Shown one piece after another: positions 8,313 through 30,358 of a stretch of 64,000 nt of DNA. Numbering within the stretch: position 1 is the first letter of the stretch; every line of letters starts with the position of its first letter. Below the pieces are notes generated by a model. That model worked only from the letters and a program-made list of their open reading frames with translations. It did no database searches and was not told the DNA's origin. Position numbers and translations under genes: made by a program. The stretch comes from Gammaproteobacteria bacterium (GTDB taxonomy: Bacteria; Pseudomonadota; Gammaproteobacteria; GCA-001735895): the NCBI GenBank assembly GCA_024225395.1, contig JAAEMR010000174.1:6057-70056 (forward strand), given 5' to 3'.

Positions 8313-8323
8313 TTTATAATCCT

Positions 8324-12020: not shown

Positions 12021-12052
12021 TAATAACTCCTCATTTGTTTACATTCAGGTAT

Positions 12053-12069: not shown

Positions 12070-12206
12070 GTCTCTTATGGTTGGAGAAACTTAGTACTCC
12101 CAGCTTTCAACTTATATGAAGAATATCGCTAATTATTCAGCAACATGTGGTACGTGACTTCACTCCAATAGATTAACAACCTATATATAGCACCCTATTA
12201 TCGGCT

Positions 12207-12223
12207 CTGGCACATCAATTGCT
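12207..12223 (+). promoter_or_regulatory. Sigma-54 type -24/-12 promoter (CTGGCACATCAATTGCT) about 145 bp upstream of the OmpA-like gene
   Basis: TGGCAC-N5-TTGCT. Identical core to the minus-strand copy 140 bp away. Confidence 0.5.
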
Positions 12224-12368
12224 AAACAAACTTCATGAAATCTAAATGGGGTGCTAATGATGAAACTATCCATCTATTCATTTGATTCAGCCGAGGTGGT
12301 GCATATGCCGCAAAAAATAACATTGCAAAATGCATCGTCAGTTGCAAAATGGGGCGCAGAATTGATAA

Positions 12369-12884: not shown

Positions 12885-13057
12885 TTAAAGGTTTAGCATA
12901 TCAGCCCATTATCAGTTTGACCGCTCTATCCAACTTCAGAGACGATCCCTACAGCCTGTCAGGTATATCACTGACGGGTTTAAAGCAGAAGTACAGCTTC
13001 AACCCTTGAATGATTGTTACATTGAATCAACTTTCAATTAAAAAGTGCCGGTTTTTT

Positions 13058-13624: not shown

Positions 13625-13654
13625 GCTTAACTCCAGCTTGAGTCATCAAAATAT

Positions 13655-14638
13655 TCATTTGTCTATCCACTCCTCACGGTGTGGGTTTGATGGTTCCTGA
13701 ACTGGTTTGGGATTAACCTTCTCGGCGTAAGCTTTGAGATCACGACGTAATGCGGTTACCACACCCATTACAATCACCACAGCAAAACCCAAAAAGACAA
13801 ATCCGATCATACTGAGTGCAGTCCATTTTTTTCGTGGTGGATAAGATTCAAAAAGTGGTTCGGTCGCCGGTTGAATCATCTCCAATGGATAGTTTTCACG
13901 GGCAAAAATCAACGACTCAACGGCCAGTTGTGCCTCCAACAGGCGGTAGATTGATCGATGCACCTCCTTGTTATTGACTACCTTCAATCGGCTTTCCAGA
14001 TAGGCACGACGGCTTTTTAACTCGTCGGCATCCAGTGAACGAATATATAGGTTAAAGGCTCTAACAAAATCATTAGCGAGGCGCGCGGCACGATCCGGCA
14101 TATCCGCGGTTATTCGGATATTTAAAAGATCCGTCTTTTTATCGATATCGATATACAACGCTTCGGATTTAAATTTCTTTACTGCCTCACGCATATCTGG
14201 TTCGACGCCCTCCCTCCATGTTTTTTTTACTTCGTCCCAATCCTGCGTATATAACCACGGCATTAAATTTTGCTCTGTGATAAAAGAGCTGATAAACCCG
14301 AACGATTCCATACGTGCCAGATGTCGCTCACGTTCATTGCTTTGACTGCCATCAATGATGAAGTCGTATTCTATAACACCAATAGTATTTGCCCCCCGGT
14401 AATTCTTCGGTTGTATGCCACCGGGCGTTTCACTGATATTGATCGCAACCTTTGCCTGGGCTGAGAAACGATCCTCGATCAACCATGACAGTCCAAATAC
14501 TACTCCCGCGCCAAGGATTGCAATGATAGCTATGCGGAACTTGTAGCGCAGTAGCTGGTGCATATACTTTAGCAGCAGCTGGTACTCTGCAAACTGTGTC
14601 TCACCGACCTGGAGCTGGTTTGTTTGTTGATTAGCCAT
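13655..14638 (-). CDS. Polysaccharide chain-length determinant (Wzz/PCP family) protein
   Basis: N-terminal TM (IAIIAILGAGVVFGLSWLI), a large periplasmic coiled-coil region, and a C-terminal TM (LSMIGFVFLGFAVVIVMGVV). Confidence 0.7.
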   Translation of the reverse strand: MANQQTNQLQVGETQFAEYQLLLKYMHQLLRYKFRIAIIAILGAGVVFGLSWLIEDRFSAQAKVAINISETPGGIQPKNYRGANTIGVIEYDFIIDGSQSNERERHLARMESFGFISSFITEQNLMPWLYTQDWDEVKKTWREGVEPDMREAVKKFKSEALYIDIDKKTDLLNIRITADMPDRAARLANDFVRAFNLYIRSLDADELKSRRAYLESRLKVVNNKEVHRSIYRLLEAQLAVESLIFARENYPLEMIQPATEPLFESYPPRKKWTALSMIGFVFLGFAVVIVMGVVTALRRDLKAYAEKVNPKPVQEPSNPHREEWIDK

Positions 14639-14639
14639 A

Positions 14640-17477
14640 TCACTTGATCAGATTAATCATAGCCGCTACGCCGATAGTGTTTTTATAGAAAATATCCACC
14701 CAGGTCGCAAACGACTCCCTACCATTAATGCGGTCAACACTAAGCGGAACATAGACCGTAGATCCGGGTGTAACCTTGACATTGGATGGAGACATAAACC
14801 AACCCCAGGTACTGGCTTTTGAACGCACTGACATAACCTCGCCATTGGCTTGAACGATATAGGCATGTTCATGTTGCGCCAGTTCCTTGGTACCTCCACT
14901 GAGACCAATGTAATCCAGTGCCGCACGACCGGAACGGTATTTGTGCGAAGTCGGAAAATAGACTTGACCGATAACACTGACTTCATCCTGAACCTTGGGT
15001 ACTATGATGCGGTCACCATCCTCCAGTACAACATCTGAGACCTCATCACAATGAGTCACAGCCTCTTCCATATCAATCACCATGCGCCCGGGCGCCTTTT
15101 CCGGGGAAAGCTGTTTAAGCACCCGGAAAACATCCTCTGCAGACTGATCCTTTGGCATTTTCTGATCTTTTTCTACCCCCTGGGACACATGCACATCGGC
15201 TGCCAGTCTCTCAAGTTGATCGAACATACGGTCTAGTGCTTTTTGCTCCTTTTTACGCACGCTCTCACGCAAGAAGACTGAACCAAACAGGTAGGCATCC
15301 TCGGTAAAGCCACCCACCCTCTGAACCAGTGAGCAAAGGGACTCTCGTTTATCAATGCGATAACTGCCCGGATAAATAACCTCACCCTCGATCGTGACGT
15401 GTTTCGGTTTCTCTACCCACTCAGGCTTTTCGCGCAAAACCAGATGATCTTTGGGATGTAAAATCAGGTCAGTTGTTTCAAGTAAGTGGCCTTTCCTGGT
15501 CAAACTGATAGACAACGAATCGGTACGACTGAACTCATTATCCAAAAGGACCTGTCGAGACAAGGTCGCAGCAATACCATAGGCCTCTTCTTTCATCCCA
15601 CCTGCTGCCTTTACAAGGTCTTTAACACGCATGCCGGGTACCATAGGATAAGTACCTGGATGAAAAACTGCACCACTTACCTGTACAACAGGCGCTATCT
15701 CACCGAAACCTGTTTCTCGCTTGATGCGCTCCACCGGGTCATTGATGAGCTCTGAGCGGTTCATATCCTTGTCAAAAAGATAAATTTTATCTTTGGATTG
15801 AAGCATTGGATTGTGATCACCGTTTTTGGCGCGTAGTGCTTCACGCAGAGAAATCTGCACAAAATAGAGGCGATCCGTGCTGAGATCCGTTCTTGCCAGC
15901 AGTGCATAATCCTGATCGACGCCTGATTCCAGTCCGCCAACATTATTGATCATGTCCAGCAAACGTGTACCGGGCTGCAGGGGATATACCCCGGGGTGTC
16001 GTAAGAAGCCTTTGAATTCAATGCTCTTGACCGGAGAGTCAGCGGTCGCCTCACGCTTCATCTTCAACACCACTCGGGACAGTTGTTCGGCACGGGCAGA
16101 GTGGGTATTGAAAATAATCACCTGGTCGCGAGGCTGCAGACGGATATTGCTATCTGAGGCCTTGTTGGCGAGAGCTTCCCCGAGGTTGAAATAAATGACC
16201 TCTGTACGTTTATCACGCCTGTTTTCACGCTGCACCATGGCCACGTCAAATTCAGCCCCCTGCCGTAGAATATTGGTTGAACTGATCAGGTCTGCAATGT
16301 TCATTTTTTTGCGCCACTGGTATCCCCCGGGGGTTAACACATGGCCGGAGAGCAGCACAACATCGTCCATCTTATCCAGGATCGGTAAAACCCGTATCAG
16401 ATCTCCATTTTTCACTTCAATGCCTTTTCCATGTTTTGCCAAATCGGCTTGCAGCAAGGTGTAAAGACCGGCGTTGGATACGCGTTCTATCTGCGCCTGG
16501 GCTTTGTTTGCTGTCGGCAACAAATCTCCAGCCAATCTCAAAACCTGACCCACGGTCCGTTCCTGTCTAATTTCATAGATCGCCGGACGCAGCACATCTC
16601 CCGCGATTCCAACGGTGGCACCGATAGGCGGCACAAAGATCAGATCGCCCTGGCGCAGATAGACGTTGGCGCTGTCATCACCATTGAGCAACAATTTATA
16701 AAGATCCATGCTCGCAATGACCTTCCCACCGCGTTTAACCTGAATATTGCGCAGTGATCCCGTGCGTTTAATGCCGCTACTGGATATCAGGGCATTAATC
16801 AAAGTAGAAAAACCACTCACGGCATAGGAACCGGGTTGTACCACCTCACCGACCAGCATGACCTGAATCGAACGCAGTTCTGATAACGTAACGACGGTCT
16901 TAATACCAATCCGCTGGCTTTCGATGGTTTTCGATATCACCCCTTTGGCTTCATCGAAGGTCAGACCACTGACCGATATGGCTCCCGCTTCGGGTACAAG
17001 GATCATGCCTTCTCGAGTCACCGTAAGCGTGTATTGCACGTCTGCGGCACTGTAAGCCTGAATGGTAAAGGTATCACCCGGCCCAATCACGTAATCCTGT
17101 GGCACTGGCGCACCACTAATCGGTGTAAATGTGGCTGCATTACCAGAGAACATTTCATAACCAAACAGTTCCAGACTGCTCTGTACGGTCTGCTGCTGAA
17201 TCTCCTCTTCCAGGCTCACGGGGTCCAGCGCGTTTGATACCTTTTGTTCGATCTGGGAGGGCTGGTCATCGCTGATAACCGACGGGTCTTTAACGACAAT
17301 GATTCGTTCAGGTTGGTGTGTTTCAGTACTGCCAGTCTGCGCCGCTACAATCGCCTGACGACGTTGCATATCCTCAAGCGTTGAAACACCCAGGCGTTCA
17401 TCGGCAACCACCAGTTGGCCCACGGCTGTGACGAACAGCACCAGGACAACGGGTGCTTTCATTAATATCTTAATCAC
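14640..17477 (-). CDS. Polysaccharide export protein, Wza/SLBB multi-domain family (945 aa; SypC-like)
   Basis: Signal peptide. An N-terminal PES/Poly_export-like region (…GPGDTFTIQAY…) followed by multiple SLBB-like repeats (…GDLIFVPP…, …GDLIRVLP…, …DKIYLF…, …GDRIIVPK…). Stop overlaps the Wzz start. Confidence 0.8.
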   Translation of the reverse strand: MIKILMKAPVVLVLFVTAVGQLVVADERLGVSTLEDMQRRQAIVAAQTGSTETHQPERIIVVKDPSVISDDQPSQIEQKVSNALDPVSLEEEIQQQTVQSSLELFGYEMFSGNAATFTPISGAPVPQDYVIGPGDTFTIQAYSAADVQYTLTVTREGMILVPEAGAISVSGLTFDEAKGVISKTIESQRIGIKTVVTLSELRSIQVMLVGEVVQPGSYAVSGFSTLINALISSSGIKRTGSLRNIQVKRGGKVIASMDLYKLLLNGDDSANVYLRQGDLIFVPPIGATVGIAGDVLRPAIYEIRQERTVGQVLRLAGDLLPTANKAQAQIERVSNAGLYTLLQADLAKHGKGIEVKNGDLIRVLPILDKMDDVVLLSGHVLTPGGYQWRKKMNIADLISSTNILRQGAEFDVAMVQRENRRDKRTEVIYFNLGEALANKASDSNIRLQPRDQVIIFNTHSARAEQLSRVVLKMKREATADSPVKSIEFKGFLRHPGVYPLQPGTRLLDMINNVGGLESGVDQDYALLARTDLSTDRLYFVQISLREALRAKNGDHNPMLQSKDKIYLFDKDMNRSELINDPVERIKRETGFGEIAPVVQVSGAVFHPGTYPMVPGMRVKDLVKAAGGMKEEAYGIAATLSRQVLLDNEFSRTDSLSISLTRKGHLLETTDLILHPKDHLVLREKPEWVEKPKHVTIEGEVIYPGSYRIDKRESLCSLVQRVGGFTEDAYLFGSVFLRESVRKKEQKALDRMFDQLERLAADVHVSQGVEKDQKMPKDQSAEDVFRVLKQLSPEKAPGRMVIDMEEAVTHCDEVSDVVLEDGDRIIVPKVQDEVSVIGQVYFPTSHKYRSGRAALDYIGLSGGTKELAQHEHAYIVQANGEVMSVRSKASTWGWFMSPSNVKVTPGSTVYVPLSVDRINGRESFATWVDIFYKNTIGVAAMINLIK

Positions 17478-18448
17478 TTGAAGTTTCCTCCTTCACTGGT
17501 GACAAAACGGAGACAACCGGAGAAATCTACGATTCTTCCCGCAGAGGTGTCTGGACAACGATCCCGATAGTCGTAAATCCCGTCACCATCGGTATCAGCC
17601 GGCCCCTTGTACAGAACACTCTGTACAAAATGCGTCATGTCTCTAGGCTGTGCTACCTTGTTCGCAGCAACGGAATACCCACAACTGTCGACTGTTTCAA
17701 GTCGTGTCCGCGAAAGCCGGTTGCCAATTCCCAGGGTATACAGGCAAACACCTGAGCGACTGCCTTGCCAGGGCATCGACTCAGGTTTTGAGTCTACTAT
17801 CCCCATACCGCCTTCAAAACTGCTGCGTTGACGCATGCGCATAACGGCATGTTCAACGGCTTTATCGATTTGAGACCAGGAGGTGATCAGAATTACCGCT
17901 GAGCTACCTTCAACCCGGCTAATCAATTCAGAGACTTTATCGAGAGCCGTAGCCAAAGAGTCACTTTCAATTTGTTCCATTGAACCAGGTGAACCTAAAG
18001 CTTGTTCTACGTCATCAGCGGTAAAGTTGGTCACTAGAAGCTCCTGCCTACGCGGATTCGGTTGCTGGTCGTATTTCAGTAGTGCACCGCTATAGCTCTG
18101 ATCCGGCATTGTTTGAGCAAATCGACGCACCATCTCACGAGCATAAAAGCGAGTCTCTACACCGCGAAACTGGCCTGACATCACTGAACTCTGATCGACC
18201 AGAAAGAACAGGTTTTTAACCCGGGGTTCAAGACTAAGATGAGCAACACGGCTGTCCAGCGGAATCGGGTTGAAGAGGTGAATAGACTGTCGATGAAGCT
18301 CAGTGTTGTAGCTTTTAACAGTCGCCAGTTCAGGTTGTGCAGGAACCTTAACCAACCGTTCTAAAGAAACGCAGCCCACCGAATGCAATACGACAAGCGC
18401 AAGACCCAGGGGTTTTAACAAATGCAGTAAACTATTATTGCTCATCAT
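17474..18448 (-). CDS. Lipoprotein with von Willebrand factor A domain and C-terminal thrombospondin-type-3 Ca-binding repeat
   Basis: Lipobox HSVGC. VWA MIDAS-like …LFFLVDQSSVMSG…. C-terminus DTDGDGIYDYRDRCPDT. 4-bp overlap with the Wza gene. Confidence 0.55.
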   Translation of the reverse strand: MMSNNSLLHLLKPLGLALVVLHSVGCVSLERLVKVPAQPELATVKSYNTELHRQSIHLFNPIPLDSRVAHLSLEPRVKNLFFLVDQSSVMSGQFRGVETRFYAREMVRRFAQTMPDQSYSGALLKYDQQPNPRRQELLVTNFTADDVEQALGSPGSMEQIESDSLATALDKVSELISRVEGSSAVILITSWSQIDKAVEHAVMRMRQRSSFEGGMGIVDSKPESMPWQGSRSGVCLYTLGIGNRLSRTRLETVDSCGYSVAANKVAQPRDMTHFVQSVLYKGPADTDGDGIYDYRDRCPDTSAGRIVDFSGCLRFVTSEGGNFK

Positions 18449-18460
18449 ATTGAACCCCGA

Positions 18461-18925
18461 CTAAACATGCTCATAAGTGGCTTGAATCCAACCTGATGAC
18501 CATAGATCCTGAGGGTGAAACCCGGGGAAGGTATCTATACCCACCAGATTCTTTAGCTTATAAAGCACCATAGACATAAAGCTGAGTGTGGCCAGCGTAA
18601 GACCGAATGAAACCACGTAGTGAAAAGTAAGGCGCAAAGGTCCAGGAATGTTCGCCCTGCGTGAATCTTCCAACCGATAGCTAGATATACGCTGGTCACG
18701 CCCGGTAAAAAAACTGAAATAGAAACTGCGAAAAAACAGCGGTAGATTAAAAATACTGTCTATACGGTGACGCGAAGCCTCATCCCTGGCAATCAATGCG
18801 GATGGTAGCAAATTATAATGTTCATCAGTTAGCAAATCTCTGATCCTTTGAGGCACTCTGCTCAAGGTGAAATCAGCAAATGTCTCGCTATTGACTCTCT
18901 GTTCTATTCTCATACAACTTCTCAT
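18461..18925 (-). CDS. Hypothetical protein (154 aa), first gene of the minus-strand export operon
   Basis: ORF with a C-terminal hydrophobic helix, positioned immediately downstream of a sigma-54 promoter-like element. Confidence 0.35.
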   Translation of the reverse strand: MRSCMRIEQRVNSETFADFTLSRVPQRIRDLLTDEHYNLLPSALIARDEASRHRIDSIFNLPLFFRSFYFSFFTGRDQRISSYRLEDSRRANIPGPLRLTFHYVVSFGLTLATLSFMSMVLYKLKNLVGIDTFPGFHPQDLWSSGWIQATYEHV

Positions 18926-18981
18926 TATTAATTAATATTTTACAAAAAAAATACAAGGCTGTTTCAACTCTGTATTTCGAA

Positions 18982-18998
18982 TGCAAAAAATGAGCCAG
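18982..18998 (-). promoter_or_regulatory. Sigma-54 type -24/-12 promoter-like element (CTGGCTCATTTTTTGCA on minus strand) about 58 bp upstream of the 18925 start
   Basis: TGGCTC-N5-TTGCA. GG and GC are correctly spaced. Confidence 0.4.
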
Positions 18999-19272
18999 CT
19001 AGCTATCAAAGTGATTTCCACTCAGGTAAAGCCAGTTAATGGAATACATATGAGACATACACGGAAGAGGCCTTAAGAAGCTGATATTAATCTATGCTAT
19101 TCGCAATAAAGTCCCGATTACCAAACCACAATATTGAAGGCATATTCTGAATATGCATTGCATTTTGAGAAATTAGCAACCATAAAGCGCTTGTGCACAC
19201 AGCATTGGTAGAGAACGCCTCCCAAGGGCCAAAATAAGCCCCGGTCAGGCATGCGACAGATTCCTGGATACG

Positions 19273-19290
19273 TTGGCATGATATCTGCAG
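19273..19290 (+). promoter_or_regulatory. Sigma-54 type promoter-like element TTGGCATGATATCTGCAG upstream of the biosynthetic operon
   Basis: TGGCAT-N5-CTGCA. Nearly identical to the element at 28150 (TGGCATGATCTCTGCAG). Confidence 0.5.
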
Positions 19291-19491
19291 AACCTGAATT
19301 AGATTTGAATTGGCTTCACCGTTTCGAACCGGATCGGTAGCTTAGGGCAAGGACATATGTGAACGTCTGTTAACAACCCTGCCGGAGTCAATACTGTTTA
19401 AATATGCAGAAAAAGCCGATTTTGCTGCAAGAAGACGGCTTATTTAATGCAGTATGAAAATGATTTTTTTAATTGAGTGAGGAATTTTTCT

Positions 19492-20379
19492 ATGCCAGAC
19501 GTATTCATTTTAGGTTTCACCAAGTGTGCTACGACCAGCATGTACAATCAGTTAATGCAACATGATGGTGTTTCCAATACCAAGCGCAAAGAACCTCATT
19601 TTCATTTCGTGCAGTTTATGGGCGACCGGTTCACAGGATCCGCAGATAACGACACGGTAAGCCAGATGTTTGTTACCGACCCCAGTCAATACCTAAATCT
19701 ATACGAACCTGGAAAGCTGAGTATCGACGGTTCAGCGATGTCGATCGAAGATCCACGTATCGTGGAGAATATCGACACACAGTTCCCGAAAGCCAGGTAC
19801 ATCATCATGCTTCGTGACCCCACTGATAGAGCCTTCTCCGCCTATTCACACCTGATACGCGATGCGCGTGAAACATGCGGCTTTCGTGATGCAATCGATC
19901 ATGAATTGAGCAATGCCCGAGAAGATCACATGCCGATCTGGCGTAACATCAAGTCAAGTCGGTATGTCGATGCGGTACAACATGCACGCAAGTTGCTGGG
20001 TGATCGACTCAAAGTAGTTGCCTATAGTGATTATGCCAAAAACAACAGGCAAACGATGGATGATATCGCCCGCTTTATCGGTTTGAACCCGATTGACTGG
20101 CGGCGTGACCACGCTAACCGCTCGGGTGTGCCTAACTCAAAGCTGTTCCAGAAGGTACTGATGCGTAAATCCCTGGCCAAGACCATCTTTGTCAATGCCT
20201 TTCCACAAAGCCTGGTTACATCATTAAAACGCAACCTGATGGAGCGCAATACAGGCGCAAAACCTGAGCTGACAGATGAGGATCGTACTTATTTTCAAGC
20301 CTGCATCGCTGATGAGATCGGCAAAATAGAACCGGGCACCCAGGACAGCGAATTGTTAAGGTCACTATACCGCGCATGA
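19492..20379 (+). CDS. Sulfotransferase-family protein
   Basis: 5'-PSB-like motif …FILGFTKCATTSMYNQL…. A 3'-PB-like region is also present (…IIMLRDPTDRAFSAYSH…). ATG at 19492 has GAGG 10 nt upstream; the ORF track uses an upstream GTG. Confidence 0.7.
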   Translation: MPDVFILGFTKCATTSMYNQLMQHDGVSNTKRKEPHFHFVQFMGDRFTGSADNDTVSQMFVTDPSQYLNLYEPGKLSIDGSAMSIEDPRIVENIDTQFPKARYIIMLRDPTDRAFSAYSHLIRDARETCGFRDAIDHELSNAREDHMPIWRNIKSSRYVDAVQHARKLLGDRLKVVAYSDYAKNNRQTMDDIARFIGLNPIDWRRDHANRSGVPNSKLFQKVLMRKSLAKTIFVNAFPQSLVTSLKRNLMERNTGAKPELTDEDRTYFQACIADEIGKIEPGTQDSELLRSLYRA

Positions 20380-21671
20380 CTGATACGAAGACAGCTTCGG
20401 CTGTTCCTCACATACTGTTTGGGATGTTTCTGCTGGAGATATTTTTCCTTTTTGTGAAAAAAATTGATGGAACACTGTATGGCGTATTCGACAATCTCGA
20501 AAAGCTGTATCCGGTAATTGCGATCCTGCTGTTGACCGCTTTTATGAAACTCAAGCTCAACTCTCATTGGTGGATGGCGCTGGGGTTTTACTCGGCCTAT
20601 CTACTATATGGAGTGTTGATCTCTTTAGCGCACCAGAAGGGAATAAAAATAATTCTGGTCCAGCTTTACCATGAAATGAAGTTCTTCCCGGTGATGTTCC
20701 TGTTTGCCATGGTGCGCTGTGATGACCGTTGGGCGAAGCTGACTCTGAAGGTTATCAAACCAATCATTATTATCACCGTAGTGCTGATTCTATTTCAGCT
20801 TGCGGCTCCGGGAGCCTACGATGCCATTTTTAAAAATGGTGGTCACTTTGAGAAAGGGCATTTTGGCGGAATGTTGTTGCCTCGCCTGGTAGGATGGTTC
20901 TGGCATCCGGGCCAGATCGCATTGTTTTTCCTGATTGCAGCCGTGTTTTTTATCGTCGAGTACCAGAAAGGCAGTATCAAGTTTGGTTTCTCGATGGTAT
21001 TCCTTTGTGTACTTTTTGTATTGCTGGCCATTCAACGCTTCGAACTGCTAATCCTTATCATTGTGCTGATGACCTTCTGGTTTCGGCGCTATATCAACCT
21101 GGATTATCGTCCCTATCTGGCTGGCCTGATCTTTATCCTTTTTTCGTCCAGCATTATCTATATCATTTCAGATGAAGCACACTTCTGGACACTGCTCGAA
21201 AATTTCAATTCACCACGAACCGTTTTTCTGGTTGAGGCTCTGTTCACGCTGGTCGAGAGCAACTACTGGGGGGCCGGATGGGGAACTATCGGCAGCCATG
21301 CGGCTGCAGATGTGGCCAATGTCTATGAATACAACGCTATGAAGGATCTTTGGTGGATTAAGCTCGGACAGTATTTCTACGATACCTACTGGCCCCATGT
21401 GATCGGTGAGACAGGTCTACCCGGCTTCTTTTTCCTGCTGTTGTCCATGGTTTTCATGATCCGTGCTTTTAGACGGCCGGAAGCCAGCATCCTGATGTTT
21501 GTCCTGATTCTTACCAGCGCACTGTCATCCAACGCCCAGTCACTATATCACCTGACGGTATTCGGCTGGTTCATCATGCTGCTGGAAAACACTGACAATA
21601 AAGAAGTCCCACATGAACCGGTGAAGATATCTGCATCTACATCGACTAACAATATAGGAGTTAAATTATGA
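20376..21671 (+). CDS. O-antigen ligase/polymerase-like (Wzy_C family) polytopic membrane protein
   Basis: About ten TM helices with a large loop. ATGA start/stop overlaps on both sides, indicating operon coupling. Confidence 0.7.
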   Translation: MTDTKTASAVPHILFGMFLLEIFFLFVKKIDGTLYGVFDNLEKLYPVIAILLLTAFMKLKLNSHWWMALGFYSAYLLYGVLISLAHQKGIKIILVQLYHEMKFFPVMFLFAMVRCDDRWAKLTLKVIKPIIIITVVLILFQLAAPGAYDAIFKNGGHFEKGHFGGMLLPRLVGWFWHPGQIALFFLIAAVFFIVEYQKGSIKFGFSMVFLCVLFVLLAIQRFELLILIIVLMTFWFRRYINLDYRPYLAGLIFILFSSSIIYIISDEAHFWTLLENFNSPRTVFLVEALFTLVESNYWGAGWGTIGSHAAADVANVYEYNAMKDLWWIKLGQYFYDTYWPHVIGETGLPGFFFLLLSMVFMIRAFRRPEASILMFVLILTSALSSNAQSLYHLTVFGWFIMLLENTDNKEVPHEPVKISASTSTNNIGVKL

Positions 21672-23191
21672 ACAGAAATAATCAGTTATCAGGGGTTGCC
21701 ATTGTGGGTACCCGGGCCCGCGGTGGAATTTACGCTGTGATCGAGAACCATATACAGGCGGGTGTGTATGAAGGCTATGAGCACTATTTCATCGCCTCAC
21801 ACGACGAAGTGGGCATAGTAAATCGAGTTATTCTGGCACTAACTTCCCTGTTCACCCTGATCAGCTTGATCATTCGAGGCAAAATATCAGTATGCCACCT
21901 GCATGGGTCGATGAAGGGAAGTATTTACCGTAAGTCGACCTTCGTCTTCGTGTGTCGTTTGCTGGGCTGCAAAGTTATTTTTCATCTTCATGGCTCGGAA
22001 TTTGCAAAAACCTATGAAAAAAGAGGTGGCATTTACAAACGCCTTGTCCGTTATGTGCTAAACCAGTCAGACAATGTCTTCGTACTTTCTGACTATTGGA
22101 AAACCTATGTTGAAACAATATCAGTTAACACTGAAATCCATGTCATAAACAACTTCCCTGCTCCAGTATATGAAACGCTCTACGACACCAGAGAATACTC
22201 TAAAAAGTCAACTACTGAGCTACTTTTCCTGGGGTACATTGGTCAACGTAAGGGGATTTACGACCTCGTTGAAGCTGTCGCTTTACTAAAGGCCAGAGGC
22301 ATTGAAGGGTTCCATATCAATGTCGGTGGTAATGGCGAAGTCGACAAACTCAAAGCACTGGTAGCAGAGAGGGATTTGACTCAATATTTTAACGTTATCG
22401 GCTGGGTTAGTGGCGATCAAAAGCACCAGCTCCTGAAACAATCTGATCTTTTATTATTGCCGTCACACAATGAAGGTCTGCCGATTGCAATCCTGGAAGC
22501 CATGTCAGCTGGTTTGGCAGTTTTAAGTACCAGGGTTGGCGGTATTCCCGATGCCATCAGCGATGAACGCTATGGTCTGCTGGTGGAACCGGGAAAACCT
22601 GAAGACCTGGCCAATGCAATCTCACGTTACCTGGACACTAAAGGACTGATCAAGTCGGTTACCAGAAATGCCCGCGAGCTGTATGACGAGGTTTACTCAG
22701 CTCAAGCCAACGTCGCTAAAATCAGAACTGTAATTGACAGGTTAAAACACAAACGAAAGAAAAAAGTACTCGCAGTGGCATCCAAGGGAGGCCATTCAAT
22801 TCAATTGATGCGTCTTAAACCTGTTTTGGATCAATATGATACAAGCTATGTTTCGAGCCAACATTACGATGGCATGGATAACTTTACCCGCGTAACAGAT
22901 GCCAACCGAAATTCTAAATTCCGCCTCATGCTGTTGTTCTTTCAGGTGTTATGGATCGTTATTCGAAAACGTCCAAACATTGTCATATCAAGTGGTGCTG
23001 CACCAGGGTACTTCACTGTACTTTGTGGAAAGCTACTCGGAGCAAAAACTATCTGGATCGATAGCATTGCTAACGCTGAGGAGTTGTCAATGTCAGGGCA
23101 ACGTGCTGGAAAGTTTGCTGACCTGTGGTTAACCCAATGGCCGGAAGTAGCGCATGAAAATGGCCCTAAATATGGAGGTCGTGTCCTGTGA
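21668..23191 (+). CDS. Fusion: GT4 (glycosyltransferase family 1) N-terminal domain plus Alg14-like C-terminal domain
   Basis: GT4 EX7E region …EGLPIAILEAMSAGLAVLSTRVGGIPD…. The C-terminal 140 aa (…KKVLAVASKGGHSIQLMRLKPVL…GAAPGYFTVLCGKLLGAKTIWIDSIAN…) resemble the Alg14/PssD/Cps14F membrane-anchor subunit. Confidence 0.7.
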   Translation: MNRNNQLSGVAIVGTRARGGIYAVIENHIQAGVYEGYEHYFIASHDEVGIVNRVILALTSLFTLISLIIRGKISVCHLHGSMKGSIYRKSTFVFVCRLLGCKVIFHLHGSEFAKTYEKRGGIYKRLVRYVLNQSDNVFVLSDYWKTYVETISVNTEIHVINNFPAPVYETLYDTREYSKKSTTELLFLGYIGQRKGIYDLVEAVALLKARGIEGFHINVGGNGEVDKLKALVAERDLTQYFNVIGWVSGDQKHQLLKQSDLLLLPSHNEGLPIAILEAMSAGLAVLSTRVGGIPDAISDERYGLLVEPGKPEDLANAISRYLDTKGLIKSVTRNARELYDEVYSAQANVAKIRTVIDRLKHKRKKKVLAVASKGGHSIQLMRLKPVLDQYDTSYVSSQHYDGMDNFTRVTDANRNSKFRLMLLFFQVLWIVIRKRPNIVISSGAAPGYFTVLCGKLLGAKTIWIDSIANAEELSMSGQRAGKFADLWLTQWPEVAHENGPKYGGRVL

Positions 23192-23661
23192 TTTTATTAA
23201 CAGTAGGTACTCAGTTGCCCTTCGATCGATTTGTTAAATTGGTTGATGAGTGGGCGTGTAAAAACCCCGAGGTGGAAATTCTTGCGCAAATCGCGAGTGG
23301 CACCTATACCCCAAAGCATATGGAGTATGTTGATTACCTGGATGAGAAAAGATATGCCGAAGTATTTGAAAAGGCAGAGGTTATTTTAGCCCATGCAGGC
23401 ATGGGATCGGTTATCAGTTCACTGATCGCCTCTAAACCCGTTATCGTTTATCCACGCAAAGCATCGCTGGGTGAGCACCGTAATGAGCACCAGTTGGCTA
23501 CCTGTCAGAAGCTATCCTACCTCAAGGGATGTTATATTGCCTACGAGCCTGAGGCGTTATTTACGACTCTTGATGAACTCAGTTCGCTGGAAGGTGGATC
23601 AATTAATCCCTATGCCAATGATGATCTGCTTGCAACTATCGATAATTTTATTGCCGGATAA
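23188..23661 (+). CDS. Alg13-like / PssE / Cps14G-like glycosyltransferase catalytic subunit (Glyco_tran_28_C)
   Basis: MILLTVGTQLPFDRFVKLVDEW…AGMGSVISSLIASKPVIVYPR…. GTG start overlapping the upstream stop (GTGA). Confidence 0.7.
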   Translation: MILLTVGTQLPFDRFVKLVDEWACKNPEVEILAQIASGTYTPKHMEYVDYLDEKRYAEVFEKAEVILAHAGMGSVISSLIASKPVIVYPRKASLGEHRNEHQLATCQKLSYLKGCYIAYEPEALFTTLDELSSLEGGSINPYANDDLLATIDNFIAG

Positions 23662-23684
23662 GTCTGGATGCAAAGGTCCTAATT

Positions 23685-24995
23685 ATGAATCACATCATGC
23701 GTCTTAGTTCCCGCCTGAGCGACCCGCATATACGAGAGGTCGTACTCGGTAGTCTTATTGGCCTGGGTATAAAAGTGTTGTCAGCGGTCAGTCTATTCAT
23801 TATGAATATGGTAGTCGCGCGAACTCTTGGTGCAGCAGAGGCGGGATTGTTTTTTCTTGGCTTTACTCTGGTCACTGTTGTTGCAGCCGTAGGACGCCTC
23901 GGCCTGGATCAGAGCCTTGTCCGTTTTATAGCTGCATCTAGTGCAACTCATTCAACCGGTGTACTGCATGGCGTTTATCGAAAATCAATAGGTTGGGTAG
24001 CCATCGCGAGTATCGGATTCGCTTTACTAGGCTGGATTAACACTGACCGTTTGGTTGAACATGTATTTAATCAGCCTGGTTTTGAACCCGTGTTGCGATC
24101 ATTTTTGATAGCAATTCCGTTGGTTGCTTTATACACCATGCATGCTCATGCGCTTCAGGGGCTTAAACAGATAGCAAAATCGATGTTGACGCTCAACGTT
24201 CTGGTGCCTGTTACACTGCTACTATTGTTGCTGATTGCCCCGGTAAAATCTGCTGATGCGGTTGCTAACTACTTCAATATCGCCTGTCTGCTCACATTGG
24301 GCACAGGCCTGTTGTTCTGGATTAAATCAGCACCAAAAACAGAAAAAGTAGAAAGTTTCTCCTCAACCCAGCTTCGTAAGACTTGCACTCCACTTTGGGT
24401 CGTCGCCATGTTATCGCAAGTGGTACAGTGGGCTCCGCAGTTGATGCTAGGTGCCTGGGCTTCTTCAGAAAATGTAGCCTTTTTTGCTGTCGCCCAACGC
24501 ACGGCGATGCTAACCAGTTTCGTTCTTTTTGCAGTCAATGCGATTGCCGCCCCTAAATTTGCCGCAATGCACGCGAAAGGAGATAGTGAGGGCTTGAAAC
24601 GCGTGGCAATCTGGTCTGTGCGTCTGATGTTATTGGCTGCGGTTCCTGCATTGATGCTGATGCTTTTGGCTCCTGAATGGTTGATGAGTTTTTTTGGTGA
24701 AGAGTTCCGTGCAGCATCGACGGCGTTGATGATCCTTGCTCTAGGTCAGTTTGTGAATATCGCAACGGGTTCTGTAGGTTATTTACTGAGCATGACGGGG
24801 CATGAACGTGATTTACGCAACAATGCGATCATTAGTGCAGTTATCGGATTGACGCTTGGTTTGGTTCTAATACCAGGTTATGGTTTGTTAGGCGCTACAG
24901 TTGCTACAGCGGTAGCGGTAGCCTCTCAGAACCTTTTAGGGGTTTATCAAGTCCGCAAACACCTTGGATTTAATACACTGGTGTTCTGGAAGTAG
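23685..24995 (+). CDS. Polysaccharide biosynthesis protein / Wzx-type flippase (MOP superfamily)
   Basis: 436 aa with 12 or more TM helices and the typical Wzx architecture. Confidence 0.75.
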   Translation: MNHIMRLSSRLSDPHIREVVLGSLIGLGIKVLSAVSLFIMNMVVARTLGAAEAGLFFLGFTLVTVVAAVGRLGLDQSLVRFIAASSATHSTGVLHGVYRKSIGWVAIASIGFALLGWINTDRLVEHVFNQPGFEPVLRSFLIAIPLVALYTMHAHALQGLKQIAKSMLTLNVLVPVTLLLLLLIAPVKSADAVANYFNIACLLTLGTGLLFWIKSAPKTEKVESFSSTQLRKTCTPLWVVAMLSQVVQWAPQLMLGAWASSENVAFFAVAQRTAMLTSFVLFAVNAIAAPKFAAMHAKGDSEGLKRVAIWSVRLMLLAAVPALMLMLLAPEWLMSFFGEEFRAASTALMILALGQFVNIATGSVGYLLSMTGHERDLRNNAIISAVIGLTLGLVLIPGYGLLGATVATAVAVASQNLLGVYQVRKHLGFNTLVFWK

Positions 24996-25100
24996 AGAAC
25001 ATTGATGTGTATACATCAGCCTTCACTCTAGCAGTATATTTCCCGGGACATCCCGATCTCGACAACACATTTTGCAATTTAATAATCACGTTGGTTAGCC

Positions 25101-26054
25101 ATGAGTGAATCAATACCAAAAATTACAGTGATAATACCGGCATATAATGCTGAGAAGACAATATGTCGTTCAATTGACTCGGCTCTACTTCAAAATGATA
25201 TCGACATCGAAATTATCATCATTAATGACTGCTCATCAGATTCCACTGAGAGTGTTATAAGGAATAGATACTCAGCATACAAGAATATAAAACTGCTTAA
25301 AACCAGGCGCAATTCTGGTCCGAGTGTGGCGCGGAATATGGGTATTGAAAATGCGACTGGAAACTGGATAGCATTACTTGATGCAGATGACTGGTTTGCG
25401 AAAAATCGCCTGTCAATACTCTATAAAAATGCATTAGAGTATGATCTCGATTTTATTGCTGATAGTTATCATTTGTGTAGCAGTGAGAATACAACGCCAC
25501 ACTCAGTTTGTTTTACCATTTTTTCTAAGCCTGATAGCTTAAAGGTGATCAGTAGTTCTCAGTTTGTTAGCAAAGGACTAGGTTCTGTAAAGCCTGTTAT
25601 CAAGAAGGAATTTCTTGATAACACCGGCATTCGCTTTAATCCGTTGGTATGGCGGGGCGAAGATATGATGTTTTTCGTAACATTATTAATTAATAATGCC
25701 CATTTCGGGTTATTAAATACACCTCTTTACTATAGGCAGGATACACTGGGTTCTCTTACAAAATCAGATAAAGTAATATTACTTACAGAAATGCATGAAG
25801 TATTTGTTGAGCTTCAGGAAATTGTTATTGCTGCAGGAAAGGAAGATGATGAAGTTATAAGCGCTTTGCAGTATAGAGCACATGTCGTTCAGGATACATT
25901 GGCAGCCGCTAAGTGGGAAATATGGATAAAAGATATGCCAAAGGTTACCAGCCTGTTAAATGCTGTTCGTCATGTATTATTTAAACGTAAGCGCTATCCA
26001 GTTAATAAGGCACGGAACGGAACTCAACTCACTAGTGCAACGGGTGGGATGTAA
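25101..26054 (+). CDS. Glycosyltransferase family 2
   Basis: …ITVIIPAYNAEKTICRSIDSALLQN…IIINDCSSDST… GT-A fold with a DxD (…LLDADDW…). Confidence 0.8.
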   Translation: MSESIPKITVIIPAYNAEKTICRSIDSALLQNDIDIEIIIINDCSSDSTESVIRNRYSAYKNIKLLKTRRNSGPSVARNMGIENATGNWIALLDADDWFAKNRLSILYKNALEYDLDFIADSYHLCSSENTTPHSVCFTIFSKPDSLKVISSSQFVSKGLGSVKPVIKKEFLDNTGIRFNPLVWRGEDMMFFVTLLINNAHFGLLNTPLYYRQDTLGSLTKSDKVILLTEMHEVFVELQEIVIAAGKEDDEVISALQYRAHVVQDTLAAAKWEIWIKDMPKVTSLLNAVRHVLFKRKRYPVNKARNGTQLTSATGGM

Positions 26055-26752: not shown

Positions 26753-27757
26753 TTACATGGCACCGCAGTCTTTGCTGAACACAACCCCCACCGTTTTGAA
26801 CAATAGCCTGAGGTCGTAGAGCTGGCTCCAGTTTCTCTGATATCGCAAATCCAGGCGAATGATGTCTTCAAAATCCTTGATCGAGGAACGACCATTCACC
26901 TGCCATTCACCGGTAATACCAGGTTTCACATCTAAACGGCGCCACTCGGGCACGTCATACTGATCAATCTCTTCCGCCGTGGGTGGACGTGTGCCCACCA
27001 GGCTCATGGAACCTTCGAGCACGTTCCAGAACTGGGGCAGCTCATCAAGGCTTGTACGTCTTAGAAAACGCCCTACCTTCGTAATTCGTGGATCATTTTC
27101 TGCTTTGAAAATAGCGCCTTTGGCTTCATTAACTACTTCGAACTTGCGAGCTTCCGCGTCCGGAACCATAGAACGAAACTTCCACAACTTGAATTTTCGT
27201 CCCATCCATCCACAGCGAGTCTGGCTGAAGAGCAAGGGTCCCGCCCCGTCACTTCTGATGGCAATCGCGATGGGAATGAACAATAAGCCGGTTATAAACA
27301 ACCCTAGCAGCGCACCAAAAATATCGACGACCCGTTTGATACGGGAGCGAACGGAAGCATGGGTCACAGGAAGCTTATCTGCTTCGTTTGAGACTGATGC
27401 AGATTCCATATTTTCCGATGACTCAATGTTGAGGACTCTGTTCAGCCCGGTCATGGTCAAGACCGCCTCTATCTGGGGTCTGAGACCACTGACCACGAGA
27501 TCAATGCCAGTGCTTTTCGACATCTTGATAGTGCTTACCAACGCTCCTATTCCACTGCTATCTAAAAAACTAGTTTTGGAAAAATCCAGGTTTACCTTGA
27601 GTGGCGGCACTTCAGTTTCACAAATAGATTTGAAGGTATTGTTAAACGGCACGGCTTCAACGACGGTAAATTCCTTGGGCATTTCGATGATCATGGCATC
27701 GGCACTCTTCGATATCTGGTAGTATTGACTTATTTCAATGTTTTGATTTTTTTTCAT
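26753..27757 (-). CDS. Fusion: N-terminal STAS (anti-sigma-factor-antagonist) domain plus C-terminal bacterial sugar transferase (priming glycosyl-1-phosphate transferase, Bac_transf/PglC-WbaP family)
   Basis: STAS: …IIEMPKEFTVVEAVPFNNT…LKVNLDFSKTSFLDSSGIGALVSTIKMSKSTGIDLVVSGLRPQIEAVL… with the DSSG phospho-Ser motif. Transferase: TM VVDIFGALLGLFITGLLFIPIAIAI, then …RKFKLWKFRSMV…DELPQFWNVLEGSMSLVGTRP…. Start ATG at 27757 with a GGAGAAG RBS. The 387-aa extended ORF is rejected because it would include its own sigma-54 promoter. Confidence 0.8.
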   Translation of the reverse strand: MKKNQNIEISQYYQISKSADAMIIEMPKEFTVVEAVPFNNTFKSICETEVPPLKVNLDFSKTSFLDSSGIGALVSTIKMSKSTGIDLVVSGLRPQIEAVLTMTGLNRVLNIESSENMESASVSNEADKLPVTHASVRSRIKRVVDIFGALLGLFITGLLFIPIAIAIRSDGAGPLLFSQTRCGWMGRKFKLWKFRSMVPDAEARKFEVVNEAKGAIFKAENDPRITKVGRFLRRTSLDELPQFWNVLEGSMSLVGTRPPTAEEIDQYDVPEWRRLDVKPGITGEWQVNGRSSIKDFEDIIRLDLRYQRNWSQLYDLRLLFKTVGVVFSKDCGAM

Positions 27758-27898: not shown

Positions 27899-27916
27899 TT
27901 GCAATGACTGTGCCAA
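27899..27916 (-). promoter_or_regulatory. Sigma-54 promoter TTGGCACAGTCATTGCAA (minus strand), perfect TGGCAC-N5-TTGCA, about 145 bp upstream of the STAS-sugar transferase start
   Basis: Exact match to the consensus -24 TGGCAC and -12 TTGCA with canonical spacing. Confidence 0.6.
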
Positions 27917-28149: not shown

Positions 28150-28166
28150 TGGCATGATCTCTGCAG
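28150..28166 (+). promoter_or_regulatory. Sigma-54 type promoter-like element TGGCATGATCTCTGCAG about 195 bp upstream of the SypE-like gene
   Basis: Near-identical to the 19273 element. Correct GG/GC spacing. Confidence 0.5.
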
Positions 28167-28358
28167 TGTTTGCTAACACCACCACTCAATTGCGGAGTTA
28201 CAGATGAATACTGAATATACCAACCAGGCTAATATATATGCATTGGGATCTACTCAAATACGTCCCGAACAAGAACAGGTTGGCAACATAGATGAATTAT
28301 TACGTGAAATTAGCCGCCTGGATCCTGCTATTAACGGGTTGACCTAATAATTAATAAA

Positions 28359-29933
28359 ATGGTTTCAGCAAAGCAACTTACTAAATCTGGAGATATAAAT
28401 TCAGTGAATCGTCTACTCATAGAAAACCAGCAACCGGCAACACTCGAATCCGTTCGTGAGCTACGCCATTTACTGGAACAGGTAACTCTGATGAGGGTTC
28501 CACAATCATTCATAAAAAAACGTATGCTGCTTTGCCTGTCAGAAGCAGCCACAAACCTGATACAACATGCTTCAACCAGGTTGAGTCAGATCACCATGCG
28601 TTTCGGAAAAAACAACACCGGCTGGTGGCTGGAAATTTTAGATGATGGCAATGCATTGGACCCAGCCAATGCAGTATTACCAAATAGTCTGGATAAATTT
28701 AGTGAATCCGAAAGTGATCGAGGTCTATCATTATTGAATAGCTTGTGTGACCATTTTGAATATCAGGCAGCCAGCAGTGGTAACGAGTTGAACAGACTAA
28801 GACTTCTGTGGAATAGCCCGGCACAGAATACTCGACCCCATATCCTTTTGGTAGAAGATGATAATTCCCTGCGTAAATTGTATGAACTTTACCTGGCAGA
28901 AACATTAGAAGTTACCACTGCAGCCAGTGGTCAGGAAGCATTATTGAAGCTAGAAACAGAGCAGATCGACCTGGTATTATCAGATATCTGCATGCCACAA
29001 ATGGATGGCATAGCATTACGCGAGCAACTGATCACAGACAGCAATTCACGCTTGATTCCTTTCATATTTCTAACTGCGATGGGTGATACTGCTCATGTTG
29101 AAAAAGCCACCAGTCTGGGTATTGATGACTATCTGACCAAACCGATAAAGAAAGAACAGTTAATCATAACCATTCAGCGTGTGTTGAAACGATCTGAGCA
29201 AGTCTACCAACAGTTGACTGACCGCATAGATGAGGGAATCACTTCTTCACTCGCACCCAGTGTACCGAAAATGAATAATAACTGGAATCTTGGCATCGCA
29301 AATCGTCACACTGGCAGCGGTGGAGGGGATCTTTTGTTACACCGGTCAGGCAAAGATTTTATGCAGATAATGCTCACCGATATCATGGGGCATGATGATT
29401 GTGCCAAATTTTTTGCTCATGCCTGTGGTGGCTATCTCAGAGGATTGATGAATGCCGCTACTTCAGATAGAAATCCTGCGAAGTTACTGGATCAAATGTC
29501 TGACTTTTGTCTACAGGATCAACTGATGTCAAAAATAACTCTGACCAGTTGCTCAGCTGTTTTATCGAATAACGGTGAGATCACCCTGGCCTGCGCCGGA
29601 CACCCACCGCCACTGCTAATCACCCCGAAAGGCATCAGCAAACTACAAGTCAGCGGTATACTACCTGGTCTGATTCCCGATACCAATTATCAATCGACAA
29701 CATTTAAGGTGGCGGCAGATGAAAGAATCGTCCTGTATACCGATGGACTATTTGAGTCTGCAGCAGATGAAAAACTTCGGCAACAACTAGAACAGCGAAT
29801 AACTTCAGAGCTCGTTAATACCCTGAATGACCCCATTGAACAGGCACTGGAAAAAATAATGGCCGTTTTTGATGAACTGGGGGGATCACCGCCTAAGGAT
29901 GATGTACTGTTGCTTTTAATGGCGCCGGTTTAA
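28359..29933 (+). CDS. SypE-like three-domain regulator: N-terminal RsbW-type Ser kinase (HATPase_c_2), central REC receiver, C-terminal PP2C/SpoIIE Ser phosphatase
   Basis: N-terminus …LCLSEAATNLIQHAS…WWLEILDDGNALDP…. REC …ILLVEDDNSLRKLYELYL…DLVLSDICMPQMDG…LTAMGD…. PP2C …GGDLLLHRS…DIMGHDDCAKFFAH…ACAGHPPPLLI…LYTDGLFE…. Confidence 0.8.
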   Translation: MVSAKQLTKSGDINSVNRLLIENQQPATLESVRELRHLLEQVTLMRVPQSFIKKRMLLCLSEAATNLIQHASTRLSQITMRFGKNNTGWWLEILDDGNALDPANAVLPNSLDKFSESESDRGLSLLNSLCDHFEYQAASSGNELNRLRLLWNSPAQNTRPHILLVEDDNSLRKLYELYLAETLEVTTAASGQEALLKLETEQIDLVLSDICMPQMDGIALREQLITDSNSRLIPFIFLTAMGDTAHVEKATSLGIDDYLTKPIKKEQLIITIQRVLKRSEQVYQQLTDRIDEGITSSLAPSVPKMNNNWNLGIANRHTGSGGGDLLLHRSGKDFMQIMLTDIMGHDDCAKFFAHACGGYLRGLMNAATSDRNPAKLLDQMSDFCLQDQLMSKITLTSCSAVLSNNGEITLACAGHPPPLLITPKGISKLQVSGILPGLIPDTNYQSTTFKVAADERIVLYTDGLFESAADEKLRQQLEQRITSELVNTLNDPIEQALEKIMAVFDELGGSPPKDDVLLLLMAPV

Positions 29934-30342: not shown

Positions 30343-30358
30343 TGGCATAGATATTGCA
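30343..30358 (+). promoter_or_regulatory. Sigma-54 promoter TGGCATAGATATTGCA about 65 bp upstream of the REC-PBP-HK-EBP operon
   Basis: TGGCAT-N5-TTGCA with canonical spacing. A TTCTCAA motif lies about 85 bp upstream. Confidence 0.55.

Follow-up and report, generated by a model that had tools for sequence, protein, structure and literature searches.

Introduction

In Vibrio fischeri, the STAS protein is placed downstream of the regulator SypE and acts below transcription (PMC10120452), and Milton and Visick predicted that SypE contacts SypA through R19, R22, E48 and R107 (PMC10120452). Anabaena All4160 and All2285 and Synechocystis XssP are described members of a family of STAS–priming transferase (PGT) proteins (bioRxiv 10.64898/2026.04.08.717354). 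In Anabaena, Ser74 of All4160 is phosphorylated by the RsbW-like kinases Alr3423 and All2284, and this phosphorylation blocks polysaccharide synthesis (bioRxiv 10.64898/2026.04.08.717354; PMC13555669). Loss of HenR, a receiver (REC)–SpoIIE phosphatase, gives a null phenotype when the kinase remains, and the S74A form of All4160, which cannot be phosphorylated, rescues the loss of HenR, with transcript levels unaffected (bioRxiv 10.64898/2026.04.08.717354; PMC13555669). Here we describe a gammaproteobacterial locus that physically links the two systems. It lies in a stretch of 64,000 nt (contig JAAEMR010000174.1, positions 6,057 to 70,056, of assembly GCA_024225395.1), which is called the window below and whose own numbering is used throughout. 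A SypE-type regulator without its own STAS protein (gene at 28404..29933) is encoded there next to a STAS–PGT fusion without its own phosphatase (gene at 26753..27757).

We propose that two partner-switching modules have merged at this locus and that SypE would now set the phosphorylation of Ser67 on the transferase, a reading for which we consider the case about evenly balanced. The first module would be the canonical syp system, with SypE and the free STAS protein SypA; the second would be of the XssP/All4160 type, with a STAS–PGT protein, a stand-alone RsbW-like kinase and a REC–PP2C phosphatase.

Results

A SypE-type regulator with kinase, receiver and phosphatase domains

The open reading frame (ORF) at 28359..29933 (+) was checked and exists. 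It encodes 524 aa from ATG 28359; the likely true start is GTG 28404, which gives a protein of 509 aa. This GTG was chosen by the gene callers in three metagenome assemblies (P0001, 100% identical), and all aligned homologues (24/24) begin at its position. SypE residues are therefore numbered on the 509-aa protein. The initial annotation had predicted an RsbW kinase, a receiver and a PP2C phosphatase in one chain. Profile hidden Markov models (HMMs) recovered all three above the Pfam gathering cut-offs, as an RsbW-like HATPase_c_2 domain (26-144, E 6e-15), Response_reg (162-272, E 7e-25) and SpoIIE (335-521, E 7e-26), these bounds being in the 524-aa numbering.

28404..29933, + strand: SypE orthologue, with the Ser kinase at ~28434-28790, the receiver at ~28842-29174 and PP2C/SpoIIE at ~29361-29921
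D194 in LVLSDICMPQMDG, + strand: phospho-acceptor of the SypE receiver, from the family alignment

The reference for SypE, SypF and SypG was locus L004 of Aliivibrio sp. S3MY1, not V. fischeri ES114; a genome scan gave its gene order as sypA–B–C–D–E–F–G. Window SypE is 41% identical to the Aliivibrio SypE over residues 4-506 (E 1e-133). In an alignment of 185 SypE-family sequences, the window protein was found to keep the kinase residues E47, N51, H55, D80, R106 and G107, the receiver residues D152, D194, T224 and K246 (D151 is also present), and the PP2C residues D309, D326, D331, D447, D499 and D500. D152, D194 and K246 are invariant across the family, and position 224 is always Thr or Ser. 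R18, R21, E47 and R106 of the window protein correspond to the predicted SypA contacts R19, R22, E48 and R107 of V. fischeri SypE (PMC10120452). Relaxed constraint on the whole protein was considered and found unsupported, since it departs from conserved columns seven times, in the middle of the family range of 0-16.

The likeness to SypE drawn in the initial annotation is thus borne out by the full-length identity to Aliivibrio SypE, the SypF- and SypG-like genes downstream and the kept catalytic residues. On this sequence evidence, ORF 28404..29933 is a genuine SypE-type tripartite regulator, a SypE orthologue with intact catalytic residues. Its architecture had also been called rare, and this did not hold: a search for SypE-type homologues gave 785 cluster representatives at E<=1e-5, and the three-domain arrangement recurs in almost every one of the top 120. 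The top matches came from Psychromonas, Moritella, Bacterioplanes, Cycloclasticus, Sedimenticola and others. The kinase–REC–phosphatase architecture is common in marine Gammaproteobacteria.

Loss of the sypA–sypD genes upstream of sypE

Related loci were collected in two scans. The first, of genome contigs with full-length SypE alignment, returned mostly generic receiver-domain matches and one useful locus, Aliivibrio L004; the second, of metagenome contigs with the PP2C half only, returned ~70 usable loci. The ~80 SypE-relative loci gathered were translated into six-frame ORFs and scanned with HMMs for STAS, PGT, SypD, SypE and SypG, and gene context was counted in those whose sequence extends 8.2 kb or more upstream of SypE, 40 in all.

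The usual order in these loci is sypA, sypB, sypC, sypD and then SypE. A free STAS gene (sypA) lies upstream of SypE in 39 of the 40, and sypD in 39/40, mostly directly abutting sypE. In 20/32 loci, a PGT gene on the same strand as sypA ends no more than 2.5 kb before it. In the window, the HMM scan of ORFs found neither intact sypA nor intact sypD and no free STAS anywhere in the 64 kb. A relic of 47 codons was found upstream of sypE, behind a sigma-54-type promoter.

28204..28347, + strand: sypA'–'sypD relic, 47 codons (Smith-Waterman, phmmer; called by gene finders)
28150..28165, + strand: TGGCATgatctCTGCA, sigma-54-type promoter of the relic and sypE; ancestral sypA promoter

The N-terminal part of the relic resembles the SypA N-terminus (Smith-Waterman score 64 versus L084, reached by 0/5000 shuffles), and its final 18 residues align with positions ~201-218 of SypD in four such proteins. 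When the relic was used as a phmmer query against 4,449 ORFs, the top 45 rows were all SypA or SypD ORFs, with consistent positions. At the nucleotide level, promoter and leader align with those of sypA in L084, and in both loci the promoter stands 38 nt from the ATG; the leader reads AATTGCGGAGT..CA.ATGAAT. The relic is evidently a deletion scar, in which the SypA phospho-site, sypB, sypC and most of sypD are gone.

The divergent STAS–priming transferase fusion

The divergent STAS-transferase neighbour reported in the initial annotation is real. Pfam gave STAS (E 2e-14) and Bac_transf (E 1.5e-64), and the gene starts at ATG 27757; a longer ORF from TTG 27916 merely reads through the leader. 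The sigma-54 elements claimed for both genes were likewise found, as elements of the -24/-12 type at 27915-27900 (-) and 28150-28165 (+).

26753..27757, - strand: STAS–PGT fusion, 334 aa, with STAS at ~27413-27718 and Bac_transf at ~26777-27337
27557-27559, - strand: codon of the putative phospho-Ser67 of the fusion (FLDS67SG), from the motif
27900..27915, - strand: TGGCACagtcaTTGCA, sigma-54-type promoter of the STAS–PGT gene, a perfect TGGCAC-N5-TTGCA, 142 nt upstream of ATG 27757

The STAS domain is followed by a disordered linker (114–130), a membrane helix with an invariant Pro162 and a PglC-like Bac_transf domain, and the KR…D…P162 pattern is present. D66, S67 and S68 are invariant across 37 STAS–PGT family members, and the FLDSSG motif is identical to that of SypA, where the serine is Ser56. 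In an AlphaFold2 (AF2) model of the fusion (mean pLDDT 76), the STAS domain was predicted confidently. Foldseek matched the fusion to the small PGT PglC 8e37 (TM 0.76, 36% identity) and its STAS domain to SpoIIAA 1tid_B and RsbV 6m36, at an rmsd of ~2 Å. PglC is monotopic, and its N-terminal helix is re-entrant. By analogy with this re-entrant-helix fold, and given the fold match, the N-terminal STAS domain of the fusion would be cytoplasmic, which would answer the topology worry of the Anabaena authors.

The fusion is 65-77% identical to proteins of Chromatiaceae and of unclassified gammaproteobacterial metagenome-assembled genomes, and 56-61% identical, at 93-99% coverage, to cyanobacterial two-domain proteins (Nostoc, Lyngbya, Phormidium and others); its PGT domain is 70% identical to cyanobacterial PGTs. 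We place it in the XssP/All4160 family on its architecture and on the published description of that family, rather than on an alignment with the All4160 or XssP sequences. An origin by joining of a local sypA and sypR was considered and rejected. The PGT domain is 70-85% identical to those of other fusions and only 33-36% to SypR-like PGTs, and in syp loci the PGT gene comes before the STAS gene, whereas in the fusion the STAS domain comes first.

In the close relatives L087, L088 and L177, an intact free STAS gene lies directly upstream of the fusion gene, and sigma-54 elements equivalent to that of the window precede this free-STAS/STAS–PGT operon. The window has no free STAS at this position, and no relic of one was detected in the 142-nt leader of its fusion gene.

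The initial annotation had named the STAS domain of the transferase as the probable substrate of SypE. That domain is the only STAS in 64 kb and has kept FLDSSG, so it stands as a candidate. It is evidently not the ancestral substrate of SypE: free SypA is found in 39/40 of the related loci and the fusion in 0/40.

A stand-alone kinase and the relic of a phosphatase

Three further features bear on the control of the transferase.

10762..11166, - strand: stand-alone RsbW-like Ser kinase, 134 aa (HATPase_c_2, E 1e-21)
11304..11390, - strand: pseudogene relic of a REC–SpoIIE (HenR-like) gene, 29 codons with two in-frame stop codons (blastx)
12260..12370, + strand: relic of a free STAS gene, its first 37 codons, ending before the phospho-site (blastx)

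The kinase has an intact GRG and 68 homologues. At least six of these lie on contigs of the same sizes as contigs that carry fusion homologues (39979, 51324, 43297, 43408, 34336 and 23598 nt), and three of these six or more also have the same organism label; locus L170 is the same contig as L087. A REC–SpoIIE gene (420–439 aa) precedes the kinase gene, in an operon with it, in L170, L171 and L172. The order in L170 and L172 is NUDIX, REC–SpoIIE, kinase, while L171 has no NUDIX gene and carries a free STAS gene between REC–SpoIIE and the kinase. The initial annotation had mentioned the stand-alone kinase as a possible additional input. Its HATPase_c_2 assignment and its relevance were upheld, but it appears from these gene neighbourhoods to be the cognate kinase of the STAS–PGT module and not a peripheral input.

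The relic at 11304-11390 sits in the 288-nt gap between the NUDIX and kinase genes and covers residues 22-50 of ~430, within the REC domain. By blastx, 19/29 residues are identical to the REC–PP2C protein of L170 and 55% to that of L172, and 0/5000 shuffles reach the score. The 288-nt gap is the same in four independent assemblies. The relic at 12260-12370 follows a sigma-54 promoter and overlaps the start of the OmpA-like gene just downstream. It is 51% identical over 37 aa (blastx, E 2e-10) to a full-length STAS protein (STAS113) encoded before OmpA in L172; this 113-aa STAS gene is intact in L172, and a similar relic of 49 codons is present in L170.

Across all window ORFs, the HMM scan found one STAS domain, on the fusion; one PP2C domain, in SypE; and two RsbW-like domains, the N-terminal part of SypE and the 134-aa kinase. 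The kinase and fusion families co-occur, and the REC–SpoIIE gene of the window is a relic with stop codons. SypE may substitute for this lost REC–SpoIIE phosphatase of the STAS–PGT module.

A different STAS–glycosyltransferase fusion was seen in L171 (Rhabdochromatium marinum, 6630-8279). This protein of 549 aa joins Glyco_tran_WecG to STAS, and its gene lies directly upstream of those for REC–SpoIIE, the free STAS and the RsbW-like kinase, with a sulfotransferase gene adjoining.

Sigma-54-type promoters and the downstream signalling genes

The whole window was scanned for TGGCAC-N5-TTGCA with up to two mismatches. Overall, the 24 matches equal the chance expectation. Non-coding positions no more than 200 nt upstream of a start on the same strand make up 3.7% of the total, yet they hold nine of the matches (binomial P ~1e-7). 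All nine lie within the exopolysaccharide (EPS) cluster at 7.0-30.4 kb, each before a cluster gene or operon. Besides the promoters of the fusion gene and of sypE, they are:

30343..30358, + strand: sigma-54-type promoter of the stand-alone REC gene, upstream of 30424
7050-7065, - strand: sigma-54-type promoter
10464-10479, - strand: sigma-54-type promoter
12054-12069, - strand: sigma-54-type promoter
12208-12223, + strand: sigma-54-type promoter
18982-18997, - strand: sigma-54-type promoter
19274-19289, + strand: sigma-54-type promoter

The elements at 12054-12069 (-) and 12208-12223 (+) are identical 16-mers, TGGCACATCAATTGCT, placed back-to-back for the NUDIX/kinase operon and the OmpA-like gene. 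K-mer counting upstream of the nine promoters for a shared SypG-binding enhancer gave AT-rich noise only, and an Rfam scan of the window gave no matches.

Downstream of sypE, the signalling genes are as follows.

30424-30843, + strand: stand-alone REC protein (Pfam)
30866-31705, + strand: PhnD-like periplasmic binding protein (Pfam)
31756-34086, + strand: SypF-like hybrid histidine kinase, HisKA-HATPase-REC-Hpt, 44% identical to Aliivibrio SypF
34083-35486, + strand: SypG-like sigma-54 activator, 55% identical to Aliivibrio SypG

The order of REC, binding protein, histidine kinase and response regulator genes is common to L084-L086. Given the SypG-like activator at 34083–35486 and the placement of the promoters, the whole cluster, including sypE and the fusion gene, plausibly forms one sigma-54 regulon.

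Between sypE and the REC gene, a 104-aa ORF at 30022-30336 (+) was called in all three assemblies. It has no Pfam or NCBIfam match, and canonical relatives have a different gene or none at this position. The affinities of the neighbouring proteins are mixed. L088, a locus without SypE, has the nearest counterparts of the PhnD-like protein (76%) and the hybrid kinase (70%); for SypE (62%) and the sigma-54 activator (80%) they are found in the canonical syp locus L084. Such a mosaic of sequence affinities hints at recombination between two paralogous loci.

Exopolysaccharide cluster and flanking genes

6010..26054, both strands: EPS cluster (Pfam), with orthologues in the type-2 loci L170 and L172 at 50-82%

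The cluster encodes an epimerase, a DUF4842/GEVED protein, a NUDIX protein, an OmpA-like protein, a Wza-like exporter (945 aa), a VWA protein, a sulfotransferase, a GT1+Alg14 fusion, an Alg13-like protein, a Wzx-type flippase and a GT2 protein. The exporter is only ~20% identical to SypC. The exporter, the VWA, OmpA-like, NUDIX and DUF4842 proteins, the epimerase and two family-less proteins align over their full length with type-2 relatives, at 50-82% identity. Because these EPS genes are preserved, the erosion seen in the three relics looks specific to the switch components.

The sulfotransferase gene (19477-20379, +) heads the glycosyltransferase/flippase operon at 19477-26054. Synechan, the product of the xss cluster, is a sulfated EPS, and the sulfotransferase of the window recalls it. 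Together with an XssP-type priming enzyme that shares 56-61% identity with cyanobacterial proteins, the sulfotransferase suggests that the product is a sulfated EPS and that Cyanobacteria and Gammaproteobacteria have exchanged genes in the past. Within the operon, 21668-23661 (+) encodes a GT4-type glycosyltransferase–Alg14-like fusion (507 aa) followed by an Alg13-like Glyco_tran_28_C protein (157 aa), giving this bacterial EPS operon a split Alg13/Alg14 pair of eukaryote-like type.

At 8324-10429 (-), a probably secreted 701-aa protein with DUF6923, GEVED and DUF4842 has its own sigma-54-type promoter. Its gene is kept beside the regulators in L087, L088, L170 and L177, with a shorter paralogue in L084, and within the regulon the protein may serve as a matrix component or an adhesin. 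The block at 35716-47915 is unrelated to EPS. It encodes a BCCT transporter, ETF-QO, the RACo corrinoid activase, pterin-binding and B12-binding proteins, MTHFR and formate-THF ligase, and looks like a corrinoid-dependent methyl-transfer pathway of the glycine betaine-type demethylation kind.

Discussion

The merger of the two modules would have proceeded by deletion of the free STAS genes and of the REC–PP2C gene, which would leave the STAS domain of the transferase as the sole substrate and SypE as the sole phosphatase. The stand-alone kinase, and possibly the SypE kinase domain too, would phosphorylate Ser67 and render the PglC-like transferase inactive. A signal would be sensed by the SypF-like hybrid kinase with the PhnD-like binding protein. 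The hybrid kinase would then phosphorylate the SypG-like activator, turning on the nine sigma-54 promoters of the cluster, and D194 of SypE, putting SypE into phosphatase mode; it is the receiver domain that would switch SypE between its N-terminal RsbW-type kinase and its C-terminal PP2C phosphatase. The dephosphorylated STAS domain would license the first lipid-linked step in the synthesis of a probably sulfated EPS. The direction of this switch is taken by analogy from V. fischeri SypE and Anabaena All4160. Because the STAS domain is part of an enzyme, the switch most likely governs enzyme activity and not transcription.

The proposed action of SypE on the fused STAS domain is read from what remains in the locus, not from a conserved pairing. 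The null phenotype in Anabaena without HenR while the kinase remains leads us to expect that a kinase and a transferase without a phosphatase would shut the pathway. A pathway lacking any phosphatase is hard to reconcile with function, and this is the main argument for SypE filling the gap. The divergent sigma-54 promoters co-regulate sypE and the transferase gene, which also counts in its favour. Several observations weigh against it. The fusion was found at 0/40 related SypE loci, so co-evolution lends the pairing no support, and no SypE was found near the fusions of L087, L088 and L177 within the flanks read (~8-10 kb per side where the contig allowed). The fused STAS domain shares only ~25% identity with SypA, and two of the residues through which SypA is predicted to touch SypE (PMC10120452), D22 and E87, have given way to T31 and Ala in it, although SypE keeps the matching R18 and R21. 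Two substitutions at near-invariant columns lie beside the ATP lid of the SypE kinase domain, W85L, which is unique among the 185 family sequences, and G105D, which is shared by 4/185; they could reflect decay of the kinase half. Another STAS or PP2C protein could also be encoded outside the 64-kb window.

Much of this would suit a SypE left as the orphan of a deleted syp operon, either serving a STAS protein elsewhere or decaying, while the fusion is run by its own kinase and an unlinked phosphatase. It is the kinase family and not SypE that co-occurs with the fusion family, no SypE locus among the 40 carries the fusion, the fused STAS departs from SypA at predicted interface residues, W85L and G105D are unusual, and the three nearby relics mark a locus under remodelling. 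Against this, SypE is full length with all catalytic residues intact and a mid-range number of column departures (7; range 0-16), and it is 100% identical in three metagenome assemblies. Its gene still has a sigma-54 promoter and still precedes those for the SypF- and SypG-like proteins, and with the phosphatase of the module reduced to a pseudogene an unlinked replacement must be assumed. We regard an orphan SypE as possible but somewhat unlikely. As a sub-case of SypE action on the fused STAS, SypE could serve only as a receiver-controlled phosphatase in place of the HenR-like REC–PP2C protein, its kinase domain being inactive or used for docking. The deleted gene had the REC–PP2C architecture of the C-terminal two thirds of SypE (26-27% identity), the W85L and G105D changes map to the G2 box and the ATP lid or adjoin them, and the GRG of the stand-alone kinase is intact. 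The conservation of N51, E47, H55, D80, R106 and G107, and the occurrence of Asp at position 105 in a few other family members, make us think this quite unlikely.

The domain families of RsbU/RsbV/RsbW and SpoIIE/SpoIIAA/SpoIIAB also invite a reading as classical anti-sigma partner switching, in which the RsbW-like domains would hold a sigma factor and STAS would free it for the EPS genes. No sigma-70-family gene was found among the Pfam-scanned ORFs of the window (nearly all those of at least 110 aa plus the 104-aa ORF 30022-30336, the scan excluding ORFs inside a larger opposite-strand ORF, and 45208-45546). The cluster promoters are of the sigma-54 type, with a bacterial enhancer-binding protein encoded next door, and the STAS domain is covalently tied to a membrane enzyme. 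In the described systems, the V. fischeri STAS protein lies below SypE and acts below transcription (PMC10120452), and HenR has no effect on Anabaena transcript levels. Release of a sigma factor is in our view very improbable.

Control of the fused STAS domain by SypE can be carried further, to a module swap by reciprocal loss in which SypE directly controls the fused STAS; if SypE can serve such a substrate, the long-sought target of free SypA in V. fischeri and other vibrios would most likely be the priming transferase SypR, with SypA as its detachable regulatory subunit. We hold this wider claim as tentative and rather doubtful. The adjacency of PGT and sypA genes in 20/32 loci points towards SypA acting on SypR. 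Should the parts left in the locus function together, this would argue that the SypE/SypA and HenR/All4160 circuits are interchangeable forms of one mechanism, the phospho-control of the committed lipid-linked step of EPS synthesis. The locus would lend comparative support to a common functional scheme for SypE-type enzymes and STAS–PGT proteins and to SypA-type STAS proteins acting on a priming transferase, and makes binding of SypA to SypR a concrete, testable hypothesis. It would also stand as a clear example of a merger of regulatory modules, documented by three gene relics.

Comparison with known systems

The window resembles the V. fischeri SypE/SypA system in the three-domain order, length and predicted contact residues of SypE (the sequence reference being Aliivibrio sp. 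S3MY1), and the syp locus in the SypF- and SypG-like genes that follow, the sigma-54 promoters and the STAS motif FLDSSG. Unlike the V. fischeri locus, it has no free SypA and no SypB-D, of which the relic at 28204-28347 alone is left. Its STAS domain is fused to a PglC-like transferase of another lineage (34-36% identical to SypR-like PGTs), and its EPS genes are not syp genes and are accompanied by a sulfotransferase and a second, stand-alone kinase.

With Anabaena All4160 and Synechocystis XssP, the fusion shares the layout of STAS, membrane helix and Bac_transf, the Ser motif and a stand-alone RsbW-like kinase, and, as in the Anabaena HenR system, its relatives carry a REC–SpoIIE phosphatase. 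The differences are the gammaproteobacterial host, the reduction of REC–SpoIIE to a relic so that the sole phosphatase is in SypE, which also carries a kinase, and transcription through a sigma-54 cascade of the SypF/SypG type.

The three domain families and the phospho-serine chemistry, the latter predicted here from sequence, are those of RsbU-RsbV-RsbW and SpoIIE-SpoIIAA-SpoIIAB in Bacillus subtilis. In contrast to B. subtilis, there is no sigma factor output, the kinase and phosphatase are fused through a receiver, and the STAS domain is fused to an enzyme. Rv1364c of Mycobacterium tuberculosis is a multidomain PP2C-kinase-STAS protein with a PAS sensor and no receiver. Like window SypE, it combines a phosphatase and an RsbW-like kinase in one polypeptide; unlike window SypE, it has another domain order, a PAS domain, the STAS domain in the same chain, no receiver and no glycosyltransferase link. 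Both parent systems of the window locus are known, SypE/SypA and the All4160/HenR/kinase system published in 2026; the hybrid of the two, with reciprocal losses, is new.

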